From a virus (Duplodnaviria; Heunggongvirae; Uroviricota; Caudoviricetes), in IMG/VR virus record IMGVR_UViG_2693429768_000005: a DNA stretch of 55,692 bases; one strand, written 5' to 3'. The notes below the pieces were generated by a model. That model saw only the letters and a program-made list of their open reading frames with translations, did no database searches and was not told the DNA's origin. The position numbers and the translations under genes were made by a program. The number at the start of each line of letters is the position of its first letter. Positions within the stretch are counted from its first letter, which is position 1. Positions 1-50,577 of this stretch are shown here, piece after piece.

Positions 1-1446
1 ATGAGTATGTCATCCATACCGTCGTCCTCCCAATCCGGGAAGCTCTATGGCTGGGTCGAAAGAATTGGTAACAAGGTTCCCCATCCTTTTTTGCTCTTTA
101 TCTATTTGATAATCGTACTCATGGTGACGACGGCAATTTTGTCAGCCTTTGGCGTCAGTGCGAAAAACCCGACCGATGGTACGCCGGTGGTGGTGAAAAA
201 CCTGCTCAGTGTGGAAGGATTACACTGGTTTTTACCCAATGTGATTAAAAACTTTAGCGGTTTTGCTCCACTTGGAGCGATCCTGGCGCTGGTTTTAGGT
301 GCCGGTCTGGCGGAGCGCGTCGGCTTACTGCCAGCGCTAATGGTTAAAATGGCATCGCATGTTAATGCCCGCTACGCCAGTTATATGGTGCTGTTTATTG
401 CTTTTTTCAGCCACATTTCTTCCGATGCGGCGTTAGTGATCATGCCACCGATGGGTGCGCTGATTTTTCTGGCGGTGGGCAGGCATCCAGTTGCAGGTTT
501 ACTGGCTGCCATTGCAGGCGTAGGTTGCGGCTTTACGGCTAATTTACTGATTGTCACAACCGACGTGTTGCTGTCGGGGATCAGCACGGAAGCGGCGGCT
601 GCGTTCAATCCGCAAATGCACGTCAGTGTAATTGATAACTGGTATTTTATGGCCAGCTCCGTAGTCGTACTGACGATTGTTGGCGGCCTGATAACCGACA
701 AAATCATCGAGCCACGATTAGGTCAATGGCAGGGAAACAGCGATGAGAAACTGCAGACATTGACCGAAAGTCAGCGTTTTGGTTTACGCATAGCAGGTGT
801 CGTATCGCTACTTTTTATTGCTGCGATCGCGCTGATGGTGATCCCGGAAAACGGGATATTGCGCGATCCGATTAATCACACCGTGATGCCATCACCCTTT
901 ATTAAAGGTATCGTGCCACTGATCATTCTTTTTTTCTTTGTTGTCTCGCTGGCTTATGGCATCGCTACCCGCACAATTCGACGTCAGGCGGATTTACCGC
1001 ATTTAATGATTGAACCGATGAAAGAGATGGCGGGATTTATCGTGATGGTTTTTCCCCTCGCCCAATTTGTCGCCATGTTTAACTGGAGCAACATGGGGAA
1101 ATTCATCGCCGTGGGGCTGACCGATATACTGGAAAGTTCAGGGCTTAGCGGCATACCGGCGTTTGTCGGTCTGGCGTTGCTTTCCTCTTTCTTATGCATG
1201 TTTATTGCCAGCGGTTCCGCAATCTGGTCGATTCTGGCCCCCATTTTCGTACCAATGTTTATGCTACTTGGCTTTCACCCGGCATTTGCGCAAATCCTCT
1301 TTCGTATTGCCGACTCATCCGTATTGCCTTTAGCGCCGGTATCTCCTTTTGTCCCACTGTTTCTTGGATTCCTGCAACGCTACAAACCAGACGCGAAACT
1401 GGGTACTTACTATTCGTTAGTCTTGCCCTATCCGCTTATCTTTTGA
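1..1446 (+). CDS. abgT: AbgT-family p-aminobenzoyl-glutamate transporter (host gene; C-terminus ends at prophage junction)
   Basis: 481-aa multi-TM protein starting MSMSSIPSSSQSGKLYGWVERIGNKVPHP, recognised as AbgT/MtrF family from memory; ORF starts at window position 1 and stops 150 bp before the first phage gene. Confidence 0.85.
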   Translation: MSMSSIPSSSQSGKLYGWVERIGNKVPHPFLLFIYLIIVLMVTTAILSAFGVSAKNPTDGTPVVVKNLLSVEGLHWFLPNVIKNFSGFAPLGAILALVLGAGLAERVGLLPALMVKMASHVNARYASYMVLFIAFFSHISSDAALVIMPPMGALIFLAVGRHPVAGLLAAIAGVGCGFTANLLIVTTDVLLSGISTEAAAAFNPQMHVSVIDNWYFMASSVVVLTIVGGLITDKIIEPRLGQWQGNSDEKLQTLTESQRFGLRIAGVVSLLFIAAIALMVIPENGILRDPINHTVMPSPFIKGIVPLIILFFFVVSLAYGIATRTIRRQADLPHLMIEPMKEMAGFIVMVFPLAQFVAMFNWSNMGKFIAVGLTDILESSGLSGIPAFVGLALLSSFLCMFIASGSAIWSILAPIFVPMFMLLGFHPAFAQILFRIADSSVLPLAPVSPFVPLFLGFLQRYKPDAKLGTYYSLVLPYPLIF

Positions 1447-1543
1447 ATGGGTGGGCTGGCGAAAAACTAATTTGTATTCAACATTTTATGTTTTGTTTTG
1501 TTTTTGATTTATCAATTTGGTCACTATTTGGTACACAAAAAGA

Positions 1544-1567
1544 AACGAGGCGTTAGCCTCGTTTCGC
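1544..1567. terminator. bidirectional rho-independent terminator hairpin
   Basis: AAACGAGGC-gtta-GCCTCGTTT inverted repeat flanked by A/T runs, between convergent abgT and tail fibre gene. Confidence 0.5.
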
Positions 1568-1594
1568 GCGGCGATGTTCTGCGCACATCACCTC

Positions 1595-4264
1595 TTATTT
1601 TTCGCTTCCAGTCAACTTACTGACAAGCGCTTCAAGTTTTGCGATACGCTCATCCATTGCGGCAATGTTGGCGCGTAGGCTGGCGTTTTCTTCTTCCAGT
1701 TCGGTTACGCGGTTATCCGTTTCGCGTGCCACCTGGACAAGTAAACCAGTCACTGCGGCGTAGTCAACATTGAGGTAACGCGTTTCCTCGCGTAACTCGT
1801 TGCCGTCAGTGGTCGGGCCTTGTAACGCTTCACCGTAATGAGTAAACGATCCCACAGCTTCCGGCAGCGCCTCCATTACCTCCTGAGCGATAACGCCAGC
1901 GTAAGGCAGGCCGTTTTCCTTGAGGGTGTAGGTGTACCCGTTCATTTTACGGATGGCTTCAGTTGCATCACCTATAACCTGAATGTTGTCTTTTAAGTCC
2001 CTGTCTGATGATTGGGTAACTGAAGTGCATGTGATAGTGCCTTCAACCGCAAGCGAAGCAGAACCATCGGAAAGGTATTTAGCCACAAACAGCGTTTTTA
2101 ATGATGTTTGTGCGCCGTTTGTATCAACAGCTTTAACCTCATAATTCAGCGGGGATGATGAACCGCCCCATGTCATCACCTGTACGTTTGCCGAGGTTGT
2201 TGCGTAAGCAATATGCCTTATGAAACGTGTGTGCGTGCTATCAAAGATATAATGACCACTAAAATGATTGTCTGCTGTCCATACGTTTGCTGTATTAAGC
2301 GTTGCAAGTTGACACCAATCCTTGATCGTTCCATTTTCAATACTTCTTGCATAGAATGATGAGTTGCGCCCGGCGAACTGGGTAGCATAGTTACCGCTAA
2401 AGGTGACATGAAAACCACCCGCAACGCCAATACCCAAAGGACCATTGTCACTGCCTGCGATTGGCTTAAACTTCTCTACAGCATCCGTATGCTGATCGTT
2501 CCAGTTTTGCCCAGCATTTATGGCGTAACCTTTAGATGATCCTATCAGGCCATTTATGGTTAGTTTGGGCATCGTCATTGATATGTCTTCACCAACGGTA
2601 ATTCCGTTAAACAGACCTACGCGAGCACCACTACAAATATAATGGAGTCCTTCAGTTGTTGCAGAATAAAAACCACAACGCCCCATTCTGAAATCAAACA
2701 TAACCTGTAGGTTTTTATATGAACCTAAGGGGTCTGATACACCCCACGGTATGATCGTTTCTGTATCTTTACCACTATTATATACAACCTGGGCGGTTGG
2801 TACTTGTACTGTTACGCCCACAGGCAAGCGCATTTTAATAGGGAATGCCCTTGCTTCAACAAAAACAAAGAGCAGGTTATCTTTGTCTTTGCTGGAACTA
2901 CAGATAGAATGTAAAGCGATTTCTTTGTCGGTATAACGATTGTAAAAACCGTAACCTGCATCCTTTCTGTCACTCCACCCGCCAGTCCTTACATACCCGG
3001 AAAAGGTGTTACAGTTCATTGGGTAATTACCAGCGCCAGACACTGTAACAATATCGATCTGATAGCCAGTCAGGTAAGCGTTGTAATAATTGGCGTTTAT
3101 AATTATAGGGTAATACTTACCATCCTCAACGCCTTCCGGGGCTTCGATTGTTATCATCTCGCCACCGCCTATGGTTGGGATATTGATGTTTCTCCTTGTC
3201 TGTTCAGCGTTTTTAGGTTTGAAAGAGTCGGCTATAAATTCGCCGTTTATGTTGAGGCTTGCGTATTTGCTCACGCCGCCAGATCTTAAATGCATTGTTA
3301 ACTGGTCTGGCGAAGAAAGGTTTGTCTCAGGGTATAGTGCACCATAAATACGCTCCGATCCTGATGTACCAACCAAAACGCTGGAAAGAATACCTCCCGC
3401 AACCCATCCGGTAGTCACGTCAGTAGCTCTTTTTAGCGATACATTAGCAAACTGAGGACTATTTGAAGACCCAACGCCCAGGTTTGTTCTTGCTGTGTCT
3501 GCATCTCCTGCACCAGTGCCGCCAGCAGAAATTGAAAGCGGTAGATATTTACTAGCCTCTGAGTCGAAACAACCCCACGTTCCTGAATCATAGACGGTAA
3601 GGAATTTATTTGCGTTTTGAGAGCATACGCGTGTTTCTCCTGTTCTTTGAATAAGCCTGTTTACTTCATCCTTGCGTGCGTGACGTGTCCAGTTCGGTCC
3701 TGATGTTGCGACCCATGTGTAAGTATAAAGTGATCGCGTAGACCAACCGACAAAGACGCCTGCATACGAAGGCGATGTATCCTGCTGACAGATAAATCCA
3801 CTCAAAAATGATTCACCAGCCGCTACGGAAGGAAAACCCTTAGTCGTTTCCTTTATGCGCAAAAAGCCAACGTAAGAAGACGGATTGCCTGATATATCGA
3901 CGCAATCTCGCGGCTCTGGACCCAAGCCAATATTGCTGCCATCTATTGCGCTTGATATTTCATCTTCCTTTTCCTGATAAAAACGAAGCGTTTCTGCTAC
4001 ATCCTGGGCAAGTCCATCAACTGAGATCGAGTCAGAAAGCAGAATACTGAATTTTGTCCCGGCAGCGATGGCAGGATTAGCCGCTGGCGTCACTGATAAT
4101 TCAGTACCGCTCTTAATTTCTGTGATGGTAAAGATCTGGATAGGGTTGCTGATGGCAATAAGCGTGCAACCCACACGAATGAGAGAAAGCGGCTCGGAAA
4201 AGTTTGTTCCCGTGCCTGCAACGGTATTGCCATTGATGGCAATTGTTCCAGTTGTGTAAATCAT
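1595..4264 (-). CDS. tail fibre/tailspike with C-terminal peptidase S74 intramolecular chaperone domain
   Basis: 889-aa ORF; C-terminal ~130 aa (DRDLKDNIQVIGD...GYTYT...YAGVIAQEV...coiled coil) matches the self-cleaving chaperone domain of phage tail fibres/endosialidases (family recalled from memory). Confidence 0.75.
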   Translation of the reverse strand: MIYTTGTIAINGNTVAGTGTNFSEPLSLIRVGCTLIAISNPIQIFTITEIKSGTELSVTPAANPAIAAGTKFSILLSDSISVDGLAQDVAETLRFYQEKEDEISSAIDGSNIGLGPEPRDCVDISGNPSSYVGFLRIKETTKGFPSVAAGESFLSGFICQQDTSPSYAGVFVGWSTRSLYTYTWVATSGPNWTRHARKDEVNRLIQRTGETRVCSQNANKFLTVYDSGTWGCFDSEASKYLPLSISAGGTGAGDADTARTNLGVGSSNSPQFANVSLKRATDVTTGWVAGGILSSVLVGTSGSERIYGALYPETNLSSPDQLTMHLRSGGVSKYASLNINGEFIADSFKPKNAEQTRRNINIPTIGGGEMITIEAPEGVEDGKYYPIIINANYYNAYLTGYQIDIVTVSGAGNYPMNCNTFSGYVRTGGWSDRKDAGYGFYNRYTDKEIALHSICSSSKDKDNLLFVFVEARAFPIKMRLPVGVTVQVPTAQVVYNSGKDTETIIPWGVSDPLGSYKNLQVMFDFRMGRCGFYSATTEGLHYICSGARVGLFNGITVGEDISMTMPKLTINGLIGSSKGYAINAGQNWNDQHTDAVEKFKPIAGSDNGPLGIGVAGGFHVTFSGNYATQFAGRNSSFYARSIENGTIKDWCQLATLNTANVWTADNHFSGHYIFDSTHTRFIRHIAYATTSANVQVMTWGGSSSPLNYEVKAVDTNGAQTSLKTLFVAKYLSDGSASLAVEGTITCTSVTQSSDRDLKDNIQVIGDATEAIRKMNGYTYTLKENGLPYAGVIAQEVMEALPEAVGSFTHYGEALQGPTTDGNELREETRYLNVDYAAVTGLLVQVARETDNRVTELEEENASLRANIAAMDERIAKLEALVSKLTGSEK

Positions 4265-4423
4265 CGCAATGACTCCATTATGTTAATTAACGGAATAATT
4301 CTACCATTTTGTGATCTTTGTTGCATTTTCTGCTTACACAAAATGTATTTGTTGATTTATGTCAATGTTGCGTAAATGCGGTTTATGGATACTACAAACA
4401 ACGAAACAACGGAGGGTAAGACA

Positions 4424-4663
4424 ATGAAAGGCTTTAAAAATATAGCTATCGCTGCAATGGTTGCTGGTCTGGTTGGTTGTGCTGATATGCCGAAACGTGA
4501 ATGCACGGCAACTTATCAAACTGGCGGTAATGAGTATGCGGTTGCAGTCTTCGGTGTCGCGGATGTTGGCGGTCATAAAATGGTTAAGGCCGGGTATCCG
4601 TTTAACTTCCAATGGGTAAGCGTTGACAACTTCAATAAAACGGATTGCCCGGAACTAAATTAA
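4424..4663 (+). CDS. small lipoprotein, candidate Cor/Llp-like superinfection-exclusion protein
   Basis: 79 aa from internal ATG after GGAGGG; signal peptide with lipobox LVGC; divergent from adjacent receptor-binding genes. Confidence 0.55.
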   Translation: MKGFKNIAIAAMVAGLVGCADMPKRECTATYQTGGNEYAVAVFGVADVGGHKMVKAGYPFNFQWVSVDNFNKTDCPELN

Positions 4664-5292
4664 TCATAGGCATCGGTTTTGATGGCGGTTATGGCGTTAC
4701 CGTGGTTTATATAGCCAGTAGGATTATATACGCCACCAGCCGTAACGCCATAGATTCTTGTTTTGCTGCCGTTATAGTATGCGGCAGCATAAATAGACGC
4801 TGAACCTTGCCCAACAACCGCGCCCAACAATTGCGGGCAAATTGCGTATGATCCTGAAAGTGTCTGATCTATATTTATACCCCCACTATTACCTGGTGAA
4901 CCGACTGTAACAATGTCCGTTAATATTCTTGATTCATTAGTTAGCACCAGTTCCCCCGAAGCGTTCCAGATAGCCATGCCCCACTTAGGGAGCGAAGGTG
5001 GGAAAATAGAAAACACATATACAGTAGCAGTATAGGTATTCTTAGTGTCCCTACCAAAAGCGCAAAGTATCTGCCCAGAGTTGGCCCTGCTAACGCTTGC
5101 TGTGACACCGCCTATACTTGTTTTTACGAATACCATTACAGGCTTGTTTGTTGGGACTGCAATGTATCTTGATGTGTTTTGCGTTGGTGGGCAAGAAATA
5201 TCTTGCCTTGTGTATAGACATATGGGCGTCGCTTCCGGTGTAACGAAAATATTCCCGTTACTTAATCTTAAATAAGCTCCGAATGTTGCCAT
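4660..5292 (-). CDS. phage distal-tail protein of unknown function (MATFG paralogue, 210 aa)
   Basis: ORF directly downstream of J; shares N-terminus MATFG with the adjacent ORF. Confidence 0.4.
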   Translation of the reverse strand: MATFGAYLRLSNGNIFVTPEATPICLYTRQDISCPPTQNTSRYIAVPTNKPVMVFVKTSIGGVTASVSRANSGQILCAFGRDTKNTYTATVYVFSIFPPSLPKWGMAIWNASGELVLTNESRILTDIVTVGSPGNSGGINIDQTLSGSYAICPQLLGAVVGQGSASIYAAAYYNGSKTRIYGVTAGGVYNPTGYINHGNAITAIKTDAYD

Positions 5293-5603
5293 TAAGCCGC
5301 CTCCGCAAATATAACAATTTCACACTGTGATGCGGGCCATATATTGGCTCCTACTGTATTACCTGCCGATGAAATTGATACGGTTCCGCCAGAAATTGTA
5401 ATCCTTCTACGCGTCGTTGATAACGTACCATGATCAAGCGTCATGCCGTATGATAATTTGCATCCGGTAGGAACGGTAAAGCTATATGTGCCTGATACTT
5501 GTCCTGAGGATAGCGAAATATAACCAACAACTACTGAAGGTTTGATTCCGTAGTTATTTGGATTTCCGTTGGCATCCCAGGTGGCTATGCCGAAAGTAGC
5601 CAT
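5292..5603 (-). CDS. phage distal-tail protein of unknown function (MATFG paralogue, 103 aa)
   Basis: ORF coupled to the 210-aa paralogue (stop/start overlap), same N-terminal motif. Confidence 0.4.
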   Translation of the reverse strand: MATFGIATWDANGNPNNYGIKPSVVVGYISLSSGQVSGTYSFTVPTGCKLSYGMTLDHGTLSTTRRRITISGGTVSISSAGNTVGANIWPASQCEIVIFAEAA

Positions 5604-5654: not shown

Positions 5655-8600
5655 TTACCATGATCCGGTAATTCGTCCAATTTGGACGCGCAACCTACCG
5701 TTTCCATCCCTAACGGAAATGGTTGTATTTGTTAGTTTCATCGCGCCCTCACCACTTACAGAACCGTAGTTTTCAAATGTGCCTGATTTATCCAGCTTCC
5801 AGCCTGTGCTATTGGAAACATAGTTGTTTGATTGAATGTATGAACCAATTTTTGCATTAGTGATTGACGCGTCTTTAATAAACGCCTCGCGCACATACAT
5901 TGCACCGTTAGACACATAGAAAGGCGTTGTATATGTGCCGTTTGCTGCGGTCATCAATACGAAGCGGTCAACGAGGAAAATACACTGCGATTGAACGTTA
6001 GTACCGCTGCCAGTTAAACCAAGTGACATACCTGTTGCGTATTTCATGCCGTTGTTGTCGGTTGCCAGCTTGATGGAGTACGTCGCATCAACATTACCTT
6101 TGAAGTCGGTTAACGCTTTTGACGTCGTTTCTATTGCCGTTGTGTTCCCGTTAACGGTCACTGTTAGCTGATCGATTTTGCTTGATAATGCCTCGTCAGC
6201 CGTAGCCATTGCCTGCGACCATTCTGTAATGTTTGAGTTTACAGAATCGAAAGACGCTGAGATCTGGCCAAATTTTTCCGCGCTTGACGCTTCATGCGTA
6301 GAAAGCGCCGTTGATACTTCAGACACCTTAGAGTTAATCGTACTGGTAAGCGATGAGTTAAGACTACTTATCGCGTCAGTGCGTGCCTTCGTTTCGTCTG
6401 CAATGGCCTTGTCGATACGGGTCACGTTGCTTGTAACCTTGCCATCAAGGGTTGAAATTGACGCATTTACGCCACTGATAGCTTGAGCGCGGGCGCTTGA
6501 CTCGTCAGCAATAGCCTGGTCCAAGCGTTTGACGCTGGCGTTTGTGTTACTTTCGAGCGTTGTTAAATCAGCTTTGACCTCTGTTATTGCGTCGCTTCTT
6601 GCCTGCGTTTCGTCAGATATTGCCTTATCAAGTCTGCTAACGCTGGCGTCTGTTTTGCTTTCAAGATTGCTTATCGAGGCATTCACGCCGCTGATAGCCT
6701 GAGCGCGGGCGCTCGTTTCGTCGGCGATAGCTTGATCAAGGCGGTTAACGCTGGCGTCGGTTTTCTTGTCGAGATCGCTTATTGATGCGTTCACGTTGTT
6801 AATTGCTTCAGCGCGGGCACTTGTTTCGTCTGCTACTGCGCGTTCCACGCTGGAAATCTGACCTTTAAGGTTGGAATCCATCGTGTTCATTTCTGCCGTG
6901 ATGGTTTTCAGCGATTCAGCCGTGGCCTTTTTCTCTTCAGCAATAACGTTGTCAATGCGGTCAATTTGCGCGTTTGTTTCTGATTGCCCTTTCTTGTATT
7001 GTGCAGTGAGCGTAACCCGCGTGTTGGTCTGCGCGAGCGAGTTATTAATCAGCGCCAAAGATGCGTTTTGCAGGCTTGCTTTTGCTTGCGCCAGTTCGCT
7101 GTCGATTCTTTCGCTGGATACCTCTAGCGAGTCAATTCTTACCTCATGTTGTCCAATACCATCGGTGTTTTCCCCAACCTTTTTATAAAGATCTTCCGTT
7201 TCTTTTTTCAGTGTGTCCGTATCAGCTTTTATGGCCCCCGTTTCTGTGATTAGGCCGTCCGTGTCAGTCCTCAAATCTTCAGTGATGTTTGTCAGGTTAT
7301 CGGTTGCAGTTTTGAGGCTGTCAGTAGCGTTTTTAAGGTCATTTGTAGCGCTTTCGATAAGGTCTGCACGGTCGCCTAGATCTTTAATGTCGCCAATCAT
7401 CCCTTTAAACTGTTCTGAATTAATCACGTCTTTTGTGACGTAGTCGCTGATTTCATCGAAGTTTTCAGTCGGTTTGCCGGATGCTTCAACGAAGTCTGAC
7501 ACACCAAAGGCATTACGCGTGCGCACATAAACGTAATAGGTGTGGCCCGTATTCATGCCGCCGAAAGTCCATTGGTAGCCGCGCCCGGTGAACTGTGCCA
7601 GCGTGGTTACTTTTGATGGGTCCGTGATCTGGTTTTCACCTGAGAAGTAGAACTCATATGCCGTATCAGTGGTCAGGGTTGTTTTGCTGATCGGGTACAC
7701 TGTTGCCTGGAAAACACCTGGAACCCAATTAACTCCAATCGGGGCCGCTGGCGCACCAATAACCAGGTCCACAATACTTTCCGCACCCTTCATGCCAGTG
7801 TCATTACGACCGCGAATACCAAGCGTGTAGCTGCCAGCATCAAGGCCATAAAAATCATAGCGGTAATTCGTTGTTTCATAAGCTGCCACCACGCGGCCTT
7901 CTGCGTTATATGCGCGGATCTCAAAGGTCAGGCGATGCGTTGTCGTCTGTGTTTCCCATGTAGCTCGACATTGAACAGTTTCAGAACCAACATTTAACAC
8001 CTTCAGGTTTTCAATGTTCGGCACGCGGAAGTGATTAAGCGTGTCGTTGTTTACCTCAAAGATTGCGCCTTCATCAACTACAGCCTGTTTGTGAGGATCA
8101 TGCTGTGCCGCCTCGATGGTGTACACGCTGTTATTTTCGGTTTCCGCTACGCTGGTGATTCGACACAGGACAGGTTTCGCGGATTCAGTTGATACGGCGA
8201 ATACGGTCCCGTTACGAATCCATGCGGGCGCCGCCGCAAGGGTAATATTGTTTCCGTCAACTCCAGTGATCTGATGTTTTTTAAACTTGCCGTCGCTGTC
8301 CAGTAAGCTGATAGTGTCACCAGCCGCCACCAGGTCAGAATCAACCTTGTCTACAGTTATCACTTTCCCGTTATTCGCCACGATGCGACCGCCCAAACGA
8401 GCGCCAGCGCGGTTATTGTCGAGTATCTCGATAATATCCCCGGGTGTGAAGTGAATTGCGTCACGGGCCATTTTAAACGTGAATTTTGAGGGTTCGCGTT
8501 TTGCTGTTTCTATCAGCCATTTGCCAGCGCGGTACGCCTGCCCGCGTGACGTGCAACCAAAAGCCTCTAACGTGGTTTCGTTGTAACCATCGCGGGCGAT

Positions 8601-9869
8601 CAGTTCGTCATCTGCCACGTATTCTTTTGATTGTTCCCAACCGTTTTCCGGGTCAGTCCATGACACGATCACGGCGTTGTAAGATTCTGCGCGGGCGATA
8701 CTTGAGCGAGTGAACGCGCCATCAACGACGTTAGCATTCGTTATGGTAGCAATTGGATCCTGCGGCGCATCAATCATCACAGTAAGGCGCTGCCCGTCCC
8801 ATAACGCGATACCACGGAACATGCCTGCAATGTTGTCCAGCAAGTCGCGGGCGCTCATTTGCTCCGTGATGTAAGCGTTAAGCGTCATGCGTGGTTCAAG
8901 GCCACCGTAACCGTCGTTCACCAACTGGTCGCAGTATTGAGAAAGCGTATACAGTGCGCCATCATCAACGTCGATGTAACCAGCGTGGCGGGCAAGCCCG
9001 AAGCGTTCATTTTTCACCAGATACCGGAAAAGCCATGCAGGGTTATTGGTGTATGCCTTTTTAAAGCCACCAAGCCATAAGCCTGAGTATGTGCGCGTTT
9101 CCGGGTCGTAGTTATCAGGCACATCAACAATCAGACCACGCATGTGATAGGTGCGTGTCGGCGTGTCAGTATACTGATCGTGGTCAATTACCGCGCCAGC
9201 GACAGCGGTATGAGGATAAGACAAGTTATCGTCGATTATCTCGCTGTAACTGCTCCACCTGGTGTCATTGCGAAGTAGATCGCTTTTGCTGTCTGGCGTT
9301 ACGCGACGAACGCGAATATCAAACGGTTTTTCATCCGGTGCCTGGATGATATGCGCTTCCATGTACTCGCCGCTTTGCTTACCTGGGCCAATGTGAATAT
9401 CCTTAACCAGTGACCAAGATGTTGATGATGAAGGCTTAACGTCAACCATCAACGTGACTGATGTATTGTATTGATTGCCCTTATCATCTGACTGAACCAG
9501 AGAATCAACGCCAAGATTCAGCCTTACGCGGTTAACGTTTGGATCTGAAACAGTCCTGATTATCGGCGTATCGTGAGTTACTTTTGCGTTTACAATAACG
9601 GTTGATTCAATGGCGTTGAAGCCGTTGATTGGTGACTGGTCAGCCGTACCATTACGCCACGCCACGCTAACGCCTGAGACTGATGTACCGCCGTTGGCGT
9701 CAGTGATTGGGCTGTCATTAAGCATTACGCTGTTTAATGGCGCTTTCTGGTTTACAGGTCCGTAGATTGGGCCTTCGCTGAGAATATCCAAAACACGATA
9801 AAACTGTTTATGAAACAGGTTATCGTTTAATAATGTTGGTGTTTTGGCTTTGCCGCCGCCGCTACTCAT
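5655..9869 (-). CDS. J: central tail fibre / host-specificity protein (lambda gpJ-like) with C-terminal coiled-coil repeat region
   Basis: 1404 aa; N-terminal two thirds align by eye to lambda J (TP..NL...EGPIxGPV...RMTPDS...FGCTSRGQA.RAGKWLI); C-terminal third diverges. Confidence 0.9.
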   Translation of the reverse strand: MSSGGGKAKTPTLLNDNLFHKQFYRVLDILSEGPIYGPVNQKAPLNSVMLNDSPITDANGGTSVSGVSVAWRNGTADQSPINGFNAIESTVIVNAKVTHDTPIIRTVSDPNVNRVRLNLGVDSLVQSDDKGNQYNTSVTLMVDVKPSSSTSWSLVKDIHIGPGKQSGEYMEAHIIQAPDEKPFDIRVRRVTPDSKSDLLRNDTRWSSYSEIIDDNLSYPHTAVAGAVIDHDQYTDTPTRTYHMRGLIVDVPDNYDPETRTYSGLWLGGFKKAYTNNPAWLFRYLVKNERFGLARHAGYIDVDDGALYTLSQYCDQLVNDGYGGLEPRMTLNAYITEQMSARDLLDNIAGMFRGIALWDGQRLTVMIDAPQDPIATITNANVVDGAFTRSSIARAESYNAVIVSWTDPENGWEQSKEYVADDELIARDGYNETTLEAFGCTSRGQAYRAGKWLIETAKREPSKFTFKMARDAIHFTPGDIIEILDNNRAGARLGGRIVANNGKVITVDKVDSDLVAAGDTISLLDSDGKFKKHQITGVDGNNITLAAAPAWIRNGTVFAVSTESAKPVLCRITSVAETENNSVYTIEAAQHDPHKQAVVDEGAIFEVNNDTLNHFRVPNIENLKVLNVGSETVQCRATWETQTTTHRLTFEIRAYNAEGRVVAAYETTNYRYDFYGLDAGSYTLGIRGRNDTGMKGAESIVDLVIGAPAAPIGVNWVPGVFQATVYPISKTTLTTDTAYEFYFSGENQITDPSKVTTLAQFTGRGYQWTFGGMNTGHTYYVYVRTRNAFGVSDFVEASGKPTENFDEISDYVTKDVINSEQFKGMIGDIKDLGDRADLIESATNDLKNATDSLKTATDNLTNITEDLRTDTDGLITETGAIKADTDTLKKETEDLYKKVGENTDGIGQHEVRIDSLEVSSERIDSELAQAKASLQNASLALINNSLAQTNTRVTLTAQYKKGQSETNAQIDRIDNVIAEEKKATAESLKTITAEMNTMDSNLKGQISSVERAVADETSARAEAINNVNASISDLDKKTDASVNRLDQAIADETSARAQAISGVNASISNLESKTDASVSRLDKAISDETQARSDAITEVKADLTTLESNTNASVKRLDQAIADESSARAQAISGVNASISTLDGKVTSNVTRIDKAIADETKARTDAISSLNSSLTSTINSKVSEVSTALSTHEASSAEKFGQISASFDSVNSNITEWSQAMATADEALSSKIDQLTVTVNGNTTAIETTSKALTDFKGNVDATYSIKLATDNNGMKYATGMSLGLTGSGTNVQSQCIFLVDRFVLMTAANGTYTTPFYVSNGAMYVREAFIKDASITNAKIGSYIQSNNYVSNSTGWKLDKSGTFENYGSVSGEGAMKLTNTTISVRDGNGRLRVQIGRITGSW
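6360..6900 (-). repeat. in-frame tandem ~105-bp repeats inside J encoding reiterated coiled-coil units
   Basis: protein repeats of the type DASVxRLDQAIADETSARAQAISGVNASIS.L..KT at least five times; DNA repeats visible (gcgcgggcgct...gcgatagc..g.tc.a.gcg.tt.acgctggcg). Confidence 0.6.
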
Positions 9870-48953: not shown

Positions 48954-50084
48954 ATGTCACAAAGAAAAATCAGCGATGAGCAATTGATCGCTGAATATAA
49001 CAACGGTTTAACGTACAAGCAGATCGCTGAAAAATATGGCATGTCAAAACGCAACGTCGAGCGGCTAGGCGCAAAACTGGCGAAACGCGGTTTAATATCC
49101 ACGCGTCGCGCACCGGGTTTTGGCGTCAATGCTGAGTCATTGCTCGTCGATAAGGATGGCAATGTGATCATGCGCTGGATTAAAACAGCCCGTGACCGCG
49201 ACGAAATGGAACAGTTAATGGAAGCGGCCCGCGACGCTTTCACGGATGAAATACCACGCGCGGAGGCTGTGCCAGTGCCTGAAATTGATTTTCAAAAAAG
49301 CCTAGCCCTTTATCCGGTGTTTGATCTGCATATCGGGGCGCTTGCTCATAAAGCTGAATGCGGCGAGAGCTACGACACTGGGATCGCTGAGCGCGTGTTG
49401 AATGACTTCTTTGACTACGCTGTTGGCGCTGCTCCGATGTCTGAAAAAGCCGTACTGCTCCTCGGTGGCGATCTGCTTCATTCTGACGGTATGGTCCCGG
49501 TGACGCCAATAAGTGGGCACATTCTTGATCAAGATAGTCGCTACGCAAAACTTGTTTATGTGGCGATCCGGTCTGTCCGGCGGGCGGTAGGTAAAATGTT
49601 GTTAAATCATAAGGATGTTGAAATCCAGGTGTTATCAGGCAATCACGATCAGTCTGGTATGATTTGGCTACGTGCGGCGCTGGCGGCTTTTTACGAAGAT
49701 GAACCGCGCGTGACGGTTGATGTGTCACCTGCTATCGTCCACCACACGCAGTACGGCAAAACATTCCTTGCTTACCACCACGGGCACACTATCAAAAAGC
49801 CGGAAAATTTATTGTCTGCTTGCGTAGCTGACTGGCGTGAGGATTTCGGCAAGTCGAAATATGTTTACGTCCATGTCGGACATTTGCACCATAAATCAGT
49901 AACAGAATCATCTATAGGCATAGTTGAACACCACGGCACGTTAGCGGGCAAAGACGCTTATTCAACTAATGGAGGATGGAGATCGCAACGTTGCGCTGCG
50001 GTTATCCTTTACAGTCCTGATTATGGCGAAATTGGTCGCTTTGTATATAGGCCTGAAATGGTGGGGTGTCATGATGTGGGATGA
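48954..50084 (+). CDS. HTH-metallophosphoesterase fusion protein
   Basis: N-terminal HTH-like LTYKQIAEKYGMSKRNVER; C-terminal phosphoesterase motifs DLH, GDLLH, GNHD, HHGH, GHLHH. Confidence 0.55.
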   Translation: MSQRKISDEQLIAEYNNGLTYKQIAEKYGMSKRNVERLGAKLAKRGLISTRRAPGFGVNAESLLVDKDGNVIMRWIKTARDRDEMEQLMEAARDAFTDEIPRAEAVPVPEIDFQKSLALYPVFDLHIGALAHKAECGESYDTGIAERVLNDFFDYAVGAAPMSEKAVLLLGGDLLHSDGMVPVTPISGHILDQDSRYAKLVYVAIRSVRRAVGKMLLNHKDVEIQVLSGNHDQSGMIWLRAALAAFYEDEPRVTVDVSPAIVHHTQYGKTFLAYHHGHTIKKPENLLSACVADWREDFGKSKYVYVHVGHLHHKSVTESSIGIVEHHGTLAGKDAYSTNGGWRSQRCAAVILYSPDYGEIGRFVYRPEMVGCHDVG

Positions 50085-50577
50085 TTTATTTACATATAGC
50101 GACGGCGTTCTATATTGGTCTTGTAACCGTGCAAATAACAAAATAAAAGCAGGTAGCGTGGCTGGATGTAAACATTATCGCGGATATTGGACTGTACGCG
50201 TTAATGGTATTTGTTGCACATGGCGTCACCGCATTATCTGGGAAATGTTTAACGGCCCTATTCCTGATGGAATGGAAATAGATCACATAAATCATATACC
50301 TGGTGACGATAGAATCGAAAACTTAAGGATGGTGACAAGGAAGGAGAATAACAGAAACAAAACAATGCCATCAAGTAATACTAGCGGATGCGTTGGCGTT
50401 ACGTGGAACAAGAAAACCAATAAATGGCGTGCGCAAATAGGTATAAGGGGGTCTGATGGGAAAAAGAAAACAATATACGTTTATTACGGTGACTCATTTG
50501 ATGATGCCGTAAAAGCAAGAAAAGAAGCTGAAAGAATGTATAACTTTCATAGCAATCACGGTATTTCTTTACCCTGA
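50071..50577 (+). CDS. HNH homing-type endonuclease with AP2 domain (second copy)
   Basis: HRIIWEMFNGPIPDGMEIDHINH plus AP2-like GVTWNKKTNKWRAQI; start overlaps upstream stop. Confidence 0.8.
   Translation: MMWDDLFTYSDGVLYWSCNRANNKIKAGSVAGCKHYRGYWTVRVNGICCTWRHRIIWEMFNGPIPDGMEIDHINHIPGDDRIENLRMVTRKENNRNKTMPSSNTSGCVGVTWNKKTNKWRAQIGIRGSDGKKKTIYVYYGDSFDDAVKARKEAERMYNFHSNHGISLP

Follow-up and report, generated by a model that had tools for sequence, protein, structure and literature searches.

The small gene at positions 4424–4663 (+ strand) of the DNA analyzed here almost certainly encodes a member of the Cor family of phage exclusion lipoproteins, as judged from its sequence. This DNA is a 55,692-nt stretch of a caudoviricete virus record (IMG/VR IMGVR_UViG_2693429768_000005), the whole of which is referred to below as the window. 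By analogy with characterized relatives, the protein very probably blocks FhuA and thereby excludes FhuA-dependent phages. The gene is an ordinary, typical cor of a kind that is already annotated and already known.

Residues 7–75 of the 79-residue protein matched the NCBIfam model NF047972 (lamb_exclu_cor, "phage exclusion lipoprotein Cor") with 58.7 bits, the curated cut-off being 31 bits, and PHROG 1119 ("Cor superinfection exclusion protein") was matched with an E-value of 1.2e-23. A first-pass annotation of this DNA had proposed a Cor/Llp-like exclusion lipoprotein on the basis of gene position, "not sequence identity". The two matches bear out this proposal, and the reservation proved too cautious, as homology to Cor can be established by sequence, beyond position alone. 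A tblastn search matched 206 phage records, many of them annotated as Cor or super-infection exclusion protein. The window protein shares 61–64% identity with Cor of Drexlerviridae and Dhillonvirus phages, 48% with that of T1, and 35–38% with those of phi80, N15, and HK022 (34–35% when read from the alignment). An alignment covering ten Cor proteins, among them those of phi80, N15, HK022, and T1, showed that it keeps all invariant positions (L16, G18, C19, C27, G35, E37, V40, A56-G57-Y58-P59-F60, V65, F70, and C75). Across 67 diverse members of the family, C19, C27, G57, P59, and C75 are invariant, and the AGYPF positions vary little or not at all.

In a large protein collection, a single-sequence search (word index) gave 6 close relatives only, and a profile built from phage Cor proteins retrieved 326 clusters across Enterobacterales, many of which are named "phage exclusion lipoprotein Cor". 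The corresponding locus of E. coli UMNK88 shows 88% identity at the DNA level and 97% at the protein level, and its gene is annotated as cor by PGAP. Near matches to this particular Cor subtype are rare, occurring in four of 5426 complete E. coli genomes. No Pfam family was obtained, at E-values up to 0.1, for Cor or either of the J-distal proteins described below, PADLOC likewise gave none, and scans of the whole window with Rfam (gathering threshold) and for tRNAs gave nothing.

The cor reading frame starts at ATG 4424, with a translation that begins MKGFKNIAIAAMVAGLVGC, and ends with the stop codon at 4661–4663. A strong ribosome-binding site, the Shine-Dalgarno sequence GGAGGG (4411–4416, +), lies 7 nt 5' of the start codon and is kept across related loci, as GGAGGG in three and GGAGGA in two. 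We also considered a 95-aa reading from ATG 4376, which would add 16 mostly acidic or polar residues before the signal peptide. It was rejected because it lacks a ribosome-binding site and because both the homologs and the PGAP annotation start at the 79-aa position. Extended starts are also found in databases: the cor gene of E. coli M15 (locus L006), where a copy of IS903B (463–1926) lies between the tail-fiber gene and cor, is annotated as a 127-aa, N-terminally extended reading, and Cor proteins of 106–127 aa occur in the database clusters P0001, P0002, P0004, and P0005. All of these extended starts are probably start-codon miscalls.

The first-pass description of a 79-aa lipoprotein with the lipobox LVGC agrees with what we read from the sequence. 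The signal peptide (4424–4480, +) consists of an n-region (MKGFK), an h-region (NIAIAAMVAG), and the lipobox L16-V17-G18-C19, which is encoded at 4469–4480 with the Cys19 codon at 4478–4480; L16, G18, and C19 belong to the positions that are invariant across the ten aligned Cor proteins. The same signal peptide and an acylated Cys are annotated in the phi80 record. Residue +2 is Ala and not an inner-membrane retention residue, which predicts sorting of Cor to the outer membrane. Mature Cor would comprise 61 aa (6.7 kDa) and have three Cys residues, at mature positions 1, 9, and 57. By conservation, the mature domain extends from Cys27 (4502–4504) to Cys75 (4646–4648) and includes the AGYPF motif at residues 56–60 (4589–4603). 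A Cys27-Cys75 disulfide is likely by analogy with T5 Llp, in which a Cys11-Cys58 disulfide ties the termini (PMC9586334); the Cor cysteines occupy the equivalent mature positions 9 and 57.

The AF2 model of Cor has pLDDT values above 90 over about residues 25–79, and its predicted fold is closest to that of T5 Llp bound to FhuA and conforms to the Llp fold, a small beta-barrel whose termini are linked by a disulfide. The same conclusion on a Cor/Llp fold has been reached by others for the Cor proteins of T1, phi80, mEp167, HK022, and KanT1 (PMC13164509; bioRxiv 10.64898/2026.03.26.714494). In contrast to the fold, the sequence similarity between Cor and Llp (PDB 8A60, 7QJF) is marginal. A phmmer search of PDB sequences with the single Cor sequence gave no match at E-values up to 10. 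With the Cor family profile, Llp (8a60_B) was the best match (E 0.017, 18.3 bits), mainly over the signal peptide and the first strand. The two systems also differ in their partners, since Llp of T5 is paired with a single large receptor-binding protein, pb5, whereas the window encodes two small J-distal proteins (PHROG 557 and PHROG 425). Another exclusion lipoprotein, Rtp45 of phage Rtp, is directed at LptD and alters the receptor loops (PMC12685063). Like Cor, it is a small lipoprotein of the periplasmic face that is encoded in the receptor-binding locus of a T1-like phage, downstream of J (PMC12685063), but its receptor is LptDE and its neighboring receptor-binding genes are different. No Rtp45 chain (9RPS) was among the PDB matches of Cor or its profile at E-values up to 10, which, provided that the copy searched includes this entry, means no detectable sequence similarity.

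The surroundings of the gene are those of a receptor-binding locus. Upstream of cor lies the gene for the lateral tail fiber (1595–4264, –), a protein of 889 aa with a C-terminal S74 intramolecular chaperone (Pfam Peptidase_S74, E 3.6e-14; PHROG tail-fiber families). On the other side are the second gene of the FhuA-type locus or cor cassette, encoding a 210-aa "membrane-associated protein" (4660–5292, –; PHROG 425, E 8e-57), and the first gene, directly after J, encoding a 103-aa "outer membrane protein" (5292–5603, –; PHROG 557, E 5e-30). They are followed by the gene for a J-like tail tip protein of 1404 aa (5655–9869, –; Pfam FNIII-A_GpJ, Phage-tail_3, Ig_J, Ig_J_second, and Phage_Tail_Tip). 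All four genes are on the – strand, so that cor is divergent from the lateral fiber gene and convergent with the J-distal genes and J; the first-pass annotation had likewise described the lipoprotein gene as opposite to the flanking tail fiber and J-distal genes. The 103-aa protein is 48% identical to phi80 gp22, and homologs of the 210-aa protein occupy the same position in T1-like, Dhillonvirus, and HK022/mEp-type phages. Homologs of both J-distal proteins were found in about 350 phage records, among which are phi80 (gp22) and the HK022/mEp group.

The order J, a protein of ~100 aa, a protein of ~210 aa, cor, and lateral fiber is common to the window, T1, PeterMerian, bob, phi80, and N15, and to the equivalent E. 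coli prophages UMNK88, MFDS1019527, Ecol_244, and M15. Relative to J, cor is inverted in T1, PeterMerian, and the Dhillonvirus bob and co-directional in phi80 and N15; it is also co-directional in HK022, where about 1 kb without annotation separates the two. In the window, cor and the convergent 210-aa gene share 4 nt at their stop codons (TTAA, 4660–4663). The same overlap was observed in three E. coli relatives (L001, 6696–6699; L004, 2214–2217; L005, 2205–2208), and a gap of 17–30 nt separates cor from the convergent gene in T1, PeterMerian, and bob. Because of the 4-nt overlap, there is no room for a cor terminator and the convergent transcripts must overlap. Moreover, to reach the lateral fiber gene, the late tail transcript has to run across cor in antisense.

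In both sequence and layout, the closest known phage counterparts of the window gene are those of T1-like (Drexlerviridae) and Dhillonvirus phages (T1, PeterMerian/Bas05, GeorgBuechner/Bas16, and bob), whose Cor proteins are 48–64% identical and of the same length class, with the lipobox, the Cys pair, AGYPF, and the arrangement J(–), ~100 aa(–), ~210 aa(–), cor(+); in Dhillonvirus, the lateral fiber gene is likewise divergent from cor. The difference is that these phages are virulent, whereas the window cor is carried by a temperate lambdoid prophage, and that the h-region of the window protein is two residues longer. The Cor proteins of phi80, N15, and HK022/mEp167, also from temperate E. 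coli phages, share the NF047972 match, the invariant residues, and a cassette located after J and before the side tail fiber. However, the phi80 record gives cor its own annotated promoter and terminator, whereas the window cor is inverted and has no recognizable promoter or terminator. The window adds a further example of an inverted cor cassette of the T1/Dhillonvirus type that has been moved into a lambdoid prophage, and it illustrates how receptor-binding loci are exchanged as modules.

Several side observations concern the neighboring proteins. The J-like protein has 1404 aa, compared with 1159 aa for J of phi80, and its counterpart in UMNK88 is still longer (5043 nt). Its Ig domains are separated from the C-terminal Phage_Tail_Tip domain by a long segment that is rich in Ala, Ser, and Asp and contains repeats; within this segment, at 6606–6830, TRF reported 2.1 copies of a 108-nt (36-aa) unit. 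In the lateral fiber, Peptidase_S74 covers residues 753–804, with a coiled-coil tail after it. Many E. coli prophage fibers share the N-terminal ~110 residues of this protein, and the remainder is strain-variable. Homologs of the J-distal proteins were found in 111 Klebsiella phage records, and the window Cor matched one Klebsiella record by tblastn; in those phages, the receptor-binding pair may be accompanied by a Cor that has diverged beyond detection, or by no Cor. Eight records labeled "Campylobacter phage" carry E. coli-type Cor cassettes, and these look like mislabeled or contaminant T1-like phages.

In small siphophages, loci of this type have been described as the module that sets receptor specificity (PMC8594841), and in the BASEL collection the complete three-gene cassette is limited to FhuA-dependent phages (PMC13164509). 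The closest phage Cor homologs are carried by PeterMerian and GeorgBuechner, for which FhuA is the experimentally determined terminal receptor according to the BASEL supplementary table. The Cor proteins of HK022, N15, and phi80 inactivate FhuA; they also reduce the uptake of ferrichrome and give protection from colicin M (PMC3594210). The Cor proteins that have been tested for exclusion (phi80, N15, HK022, and T1) share 35–48% identity with the window allele, and the relatives with 61–64% identity come from FhuA-dependent phages. From these relationships we infer the FhuA target and the exclusion phenotype. The most likely function would be lysogenic conversion, with FhuA blocked from the periplasmic side.

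For T5, Llp has been located on the periplasmic face and plug of FhuA, upon which the extracellular loops fold in and close it to the receptor-binding proteins of phages (PMC9586334). For Cor, the mechanism has yet to be solved at the molecular level (bioRxiv 10.64898/2026.03.26.714494), and periplasmic allosteric blocking by Cor would be an extrapolation from Llp. [quoted passage not shown] A Cys27-Cys75 disulfide, as conservation and Llp suggest, would tie the ends of a small SH3-like beta-barrel. This 6.7-kDa domain could then bind the periplasmic face of FhuA, the ferrichrome transporter, and the extracellular loops would refuse receptor-binding proteins; this step draws on homology to Cor of phi80, N15, HK022, and T1 and on the similarity of the fold to FhuA-bound T5 Llp. 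As a result, the lysogen, the infected cell, and lytic debris would stop adsorbing this phage and other FhuA-dependent phages such as T1, T5, phi80, HK022, and N15, and colicin M sensitivity and ferrichrome uptake should drop.

The gene itself adds little that is new, and the following predictions may be of use in the choice of therapeutic phages and in reading host-range data. FhuA is expected to serve the prophage as terminal receptor. Cells lysogenic for it should be resistant to FhuA-dependent phages (T1, T5, phi80, and their relatives) as well as to colicin M, and should show reduced ferrichrome uptake.

Belonging to the family is not enough to identify the target, since Cor/Llp-like lipoproteins are also present in BtuB-targeting phages (PMC13164509). 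The window protein might hence be a divergent subtype of the Cor family that blocks a receptor other than FhuA, such as BtuB, another TonB-dependent transporter, or LptD. Its identity to functionally tested Cor proteins is just 35–48%, and small siphophages exchange receptor-binding loci horizontally (PMC8594841), both of which would fit such a shift. We nevertheless consider it unlikely, because all three genes of the cassette are present, which in its complete form is confined to FhuA-dependent phages in BASEL (PMC13164509), because the closest homologs of Cor and of the J-distal proteins are in FhuA-dependent phages (PeterMerian, GeorgBuechner, T1, phi80, and the HK022/mEp group), and because the LptD-type Rtp45 did not appear among the PDB sequence matches of Cor or the family profile.

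Two further explanations would remove exclusion altogether. Small lipoprotein morons adjoining tail-fiber genes include some with Bor/Lom-type functions, and the window gene could accordingly be a virulence or envelope moron like lambda Bor (serum resistance), or else an accessory of tail assembly. The authors of the KanT1 study call the roles of the two neighboring proteins unresolved (PMC13164509), which leaves some space for a reading of this kind. It is extremely improbable, however: the Pfam search gave no match and hence none to a Bor/Lom family, the above-cut-off matches are to Cor models only, and the best structural match is itself an exclusion lipoprotein. Alternatively, the intact-looking cor ORF could be an inert remnant that is unexpressed or non-functional in the prophage, in keeping with the absence of a consensus promoter on the cor strand and of a terminator, and with the late tail transcript running antisense through the gene. 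Against this stand the intact ORF, the strong ribosome-binding site, the retention of all family-invariant residues, and the conservation of the region upstream of cor. In addition, virulent phages of the T1-like and Dhillonvirus groups have the same inverted layout, as do four E. coli prophages (94–97% protein identity), which argues for selection and makes an inert remnant very unlikely. The reading of the gene as a functional cor that acts on FhuA is therefore preferred here.

The intergenic region between the fiber start and the cor start (4265–4423) is 159 nt long with 34% GC and is conserved throughout in four related E. coli loci. It contains a perfect inverted repeat of 9 bp (100% complementary), CATTTTGTG at 4305–4313 and CACAAAATG at 4337–4345, with 23 nt between the arms, and a near-copy of the arm, CATTTTCTG, at 4324–4332. 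Of 5000 dinucleotide-shuffled versions of the region, 4.1% contained a perfect inverted repeat (9 nt or more, gap of 3–40 nt), as did 11 of 350 window tiles of equal size, so the repeat is only mildly unusual in statistical terms. The right arm reads TACAAAATG in three of the four related E. coli loci, and one locus differs by a mismatch in the left arm, in each case without a compensatory change. Upstream of cor in PeterMerian, bob, phi80, N15, and HK022, the repeat sequence is absent; T1 has a different 9-nt repeat, TTTTGTAAC/GTTACAAAA, at a similar distance from cor. Given its absence in relatives and the lack of compensatory change in the E. coli loci, we rejected the repeat as a conserved operator of the family. 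The weak statistics and the non-conservation leave it as an unexplained local feature and not an established operator.

Promoter searches of this region gave little for cor. A sigma-70 consensus scan upstream of cor on the + strand found no match, and in a crude weight-matrix scan the best + strand score equaled the median of random tiles. A terminator scan returned a single terminator-like site, on the opposite strand inside the 210-aa gene, and none for cor. With neither a + strand promoter nor a terminator, expression of cor in the lysogen is therefore assumed. The inverted motif pair that the first-pass annotation had placed in the promoter region is real as a perfect 9-nt repeat, but the promoter role is not supported, as there is no + strand sigma-70 match and the repeat is not conserved in the family.

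On the – strand, an extended –10-like element, TGgTAGAAT (4306..4298), with ATGCAA 17 nt upstream, faces the lateral fiber gene. It reaches the 95th percentile of the best scores of tiles, and its start would fall upstream of the tail-fiber ribosome-binding site. A candidate CRP-like site, TGTGA-N6-TTGCA (4310–4325), agrees at 8 of 10 core positions, and at 9 of 10 in UMNK88, Ecol_244, and M15; its assignment is speculative. The –10-like element (4298–4326, – strand) and the CRP-like site overlap each other and arm 1 of the inverted repeat. The identification of the gene as cor is unaffected by these elements, by the lack of a + strand promoter match, and by the overlap with the 210-aa gene. 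That the region 4265–4423 is a switch coupling cor and the fiber gene to host physiology or to a phage regulator, or that the Cor subtype has shifted away from FhuA, seems quite improbable to us.

The host is E. coli, as the flanking abgT gene is 98.6% identical. The prophage sits in the 3' end of abgT, leaving an ORF of 481 aa (window positions 1–1600), and a pseudogene is annotated at the same abgT site in UMNK88. In many E. coli genomes, a tail-fiber gene lies directly beside abgT, which indicates a recurrent integration site. When the abgT junction was compared with the rest of the window for att-type direct repeats, a 13-mer was all that emerged; the window ends inside the integrase gene and so does not include the other junction. 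The prophage carries a CI-like repressor, replication genes, and an integrase, and the presence of the repressor and the integrase makes lysogeny plausible. This gene content marks it as a temperate phage, for which cor would serve in lysogenic conversion. Within the replication module, an HNH endonuclease ORF (49969–50577, +), located just upstream of the gene for a DnaB-like helicase, overlaps the 3' end of the exonuclease gene (48954–50084) by about 116 nt and may represent a homing-type insertion.
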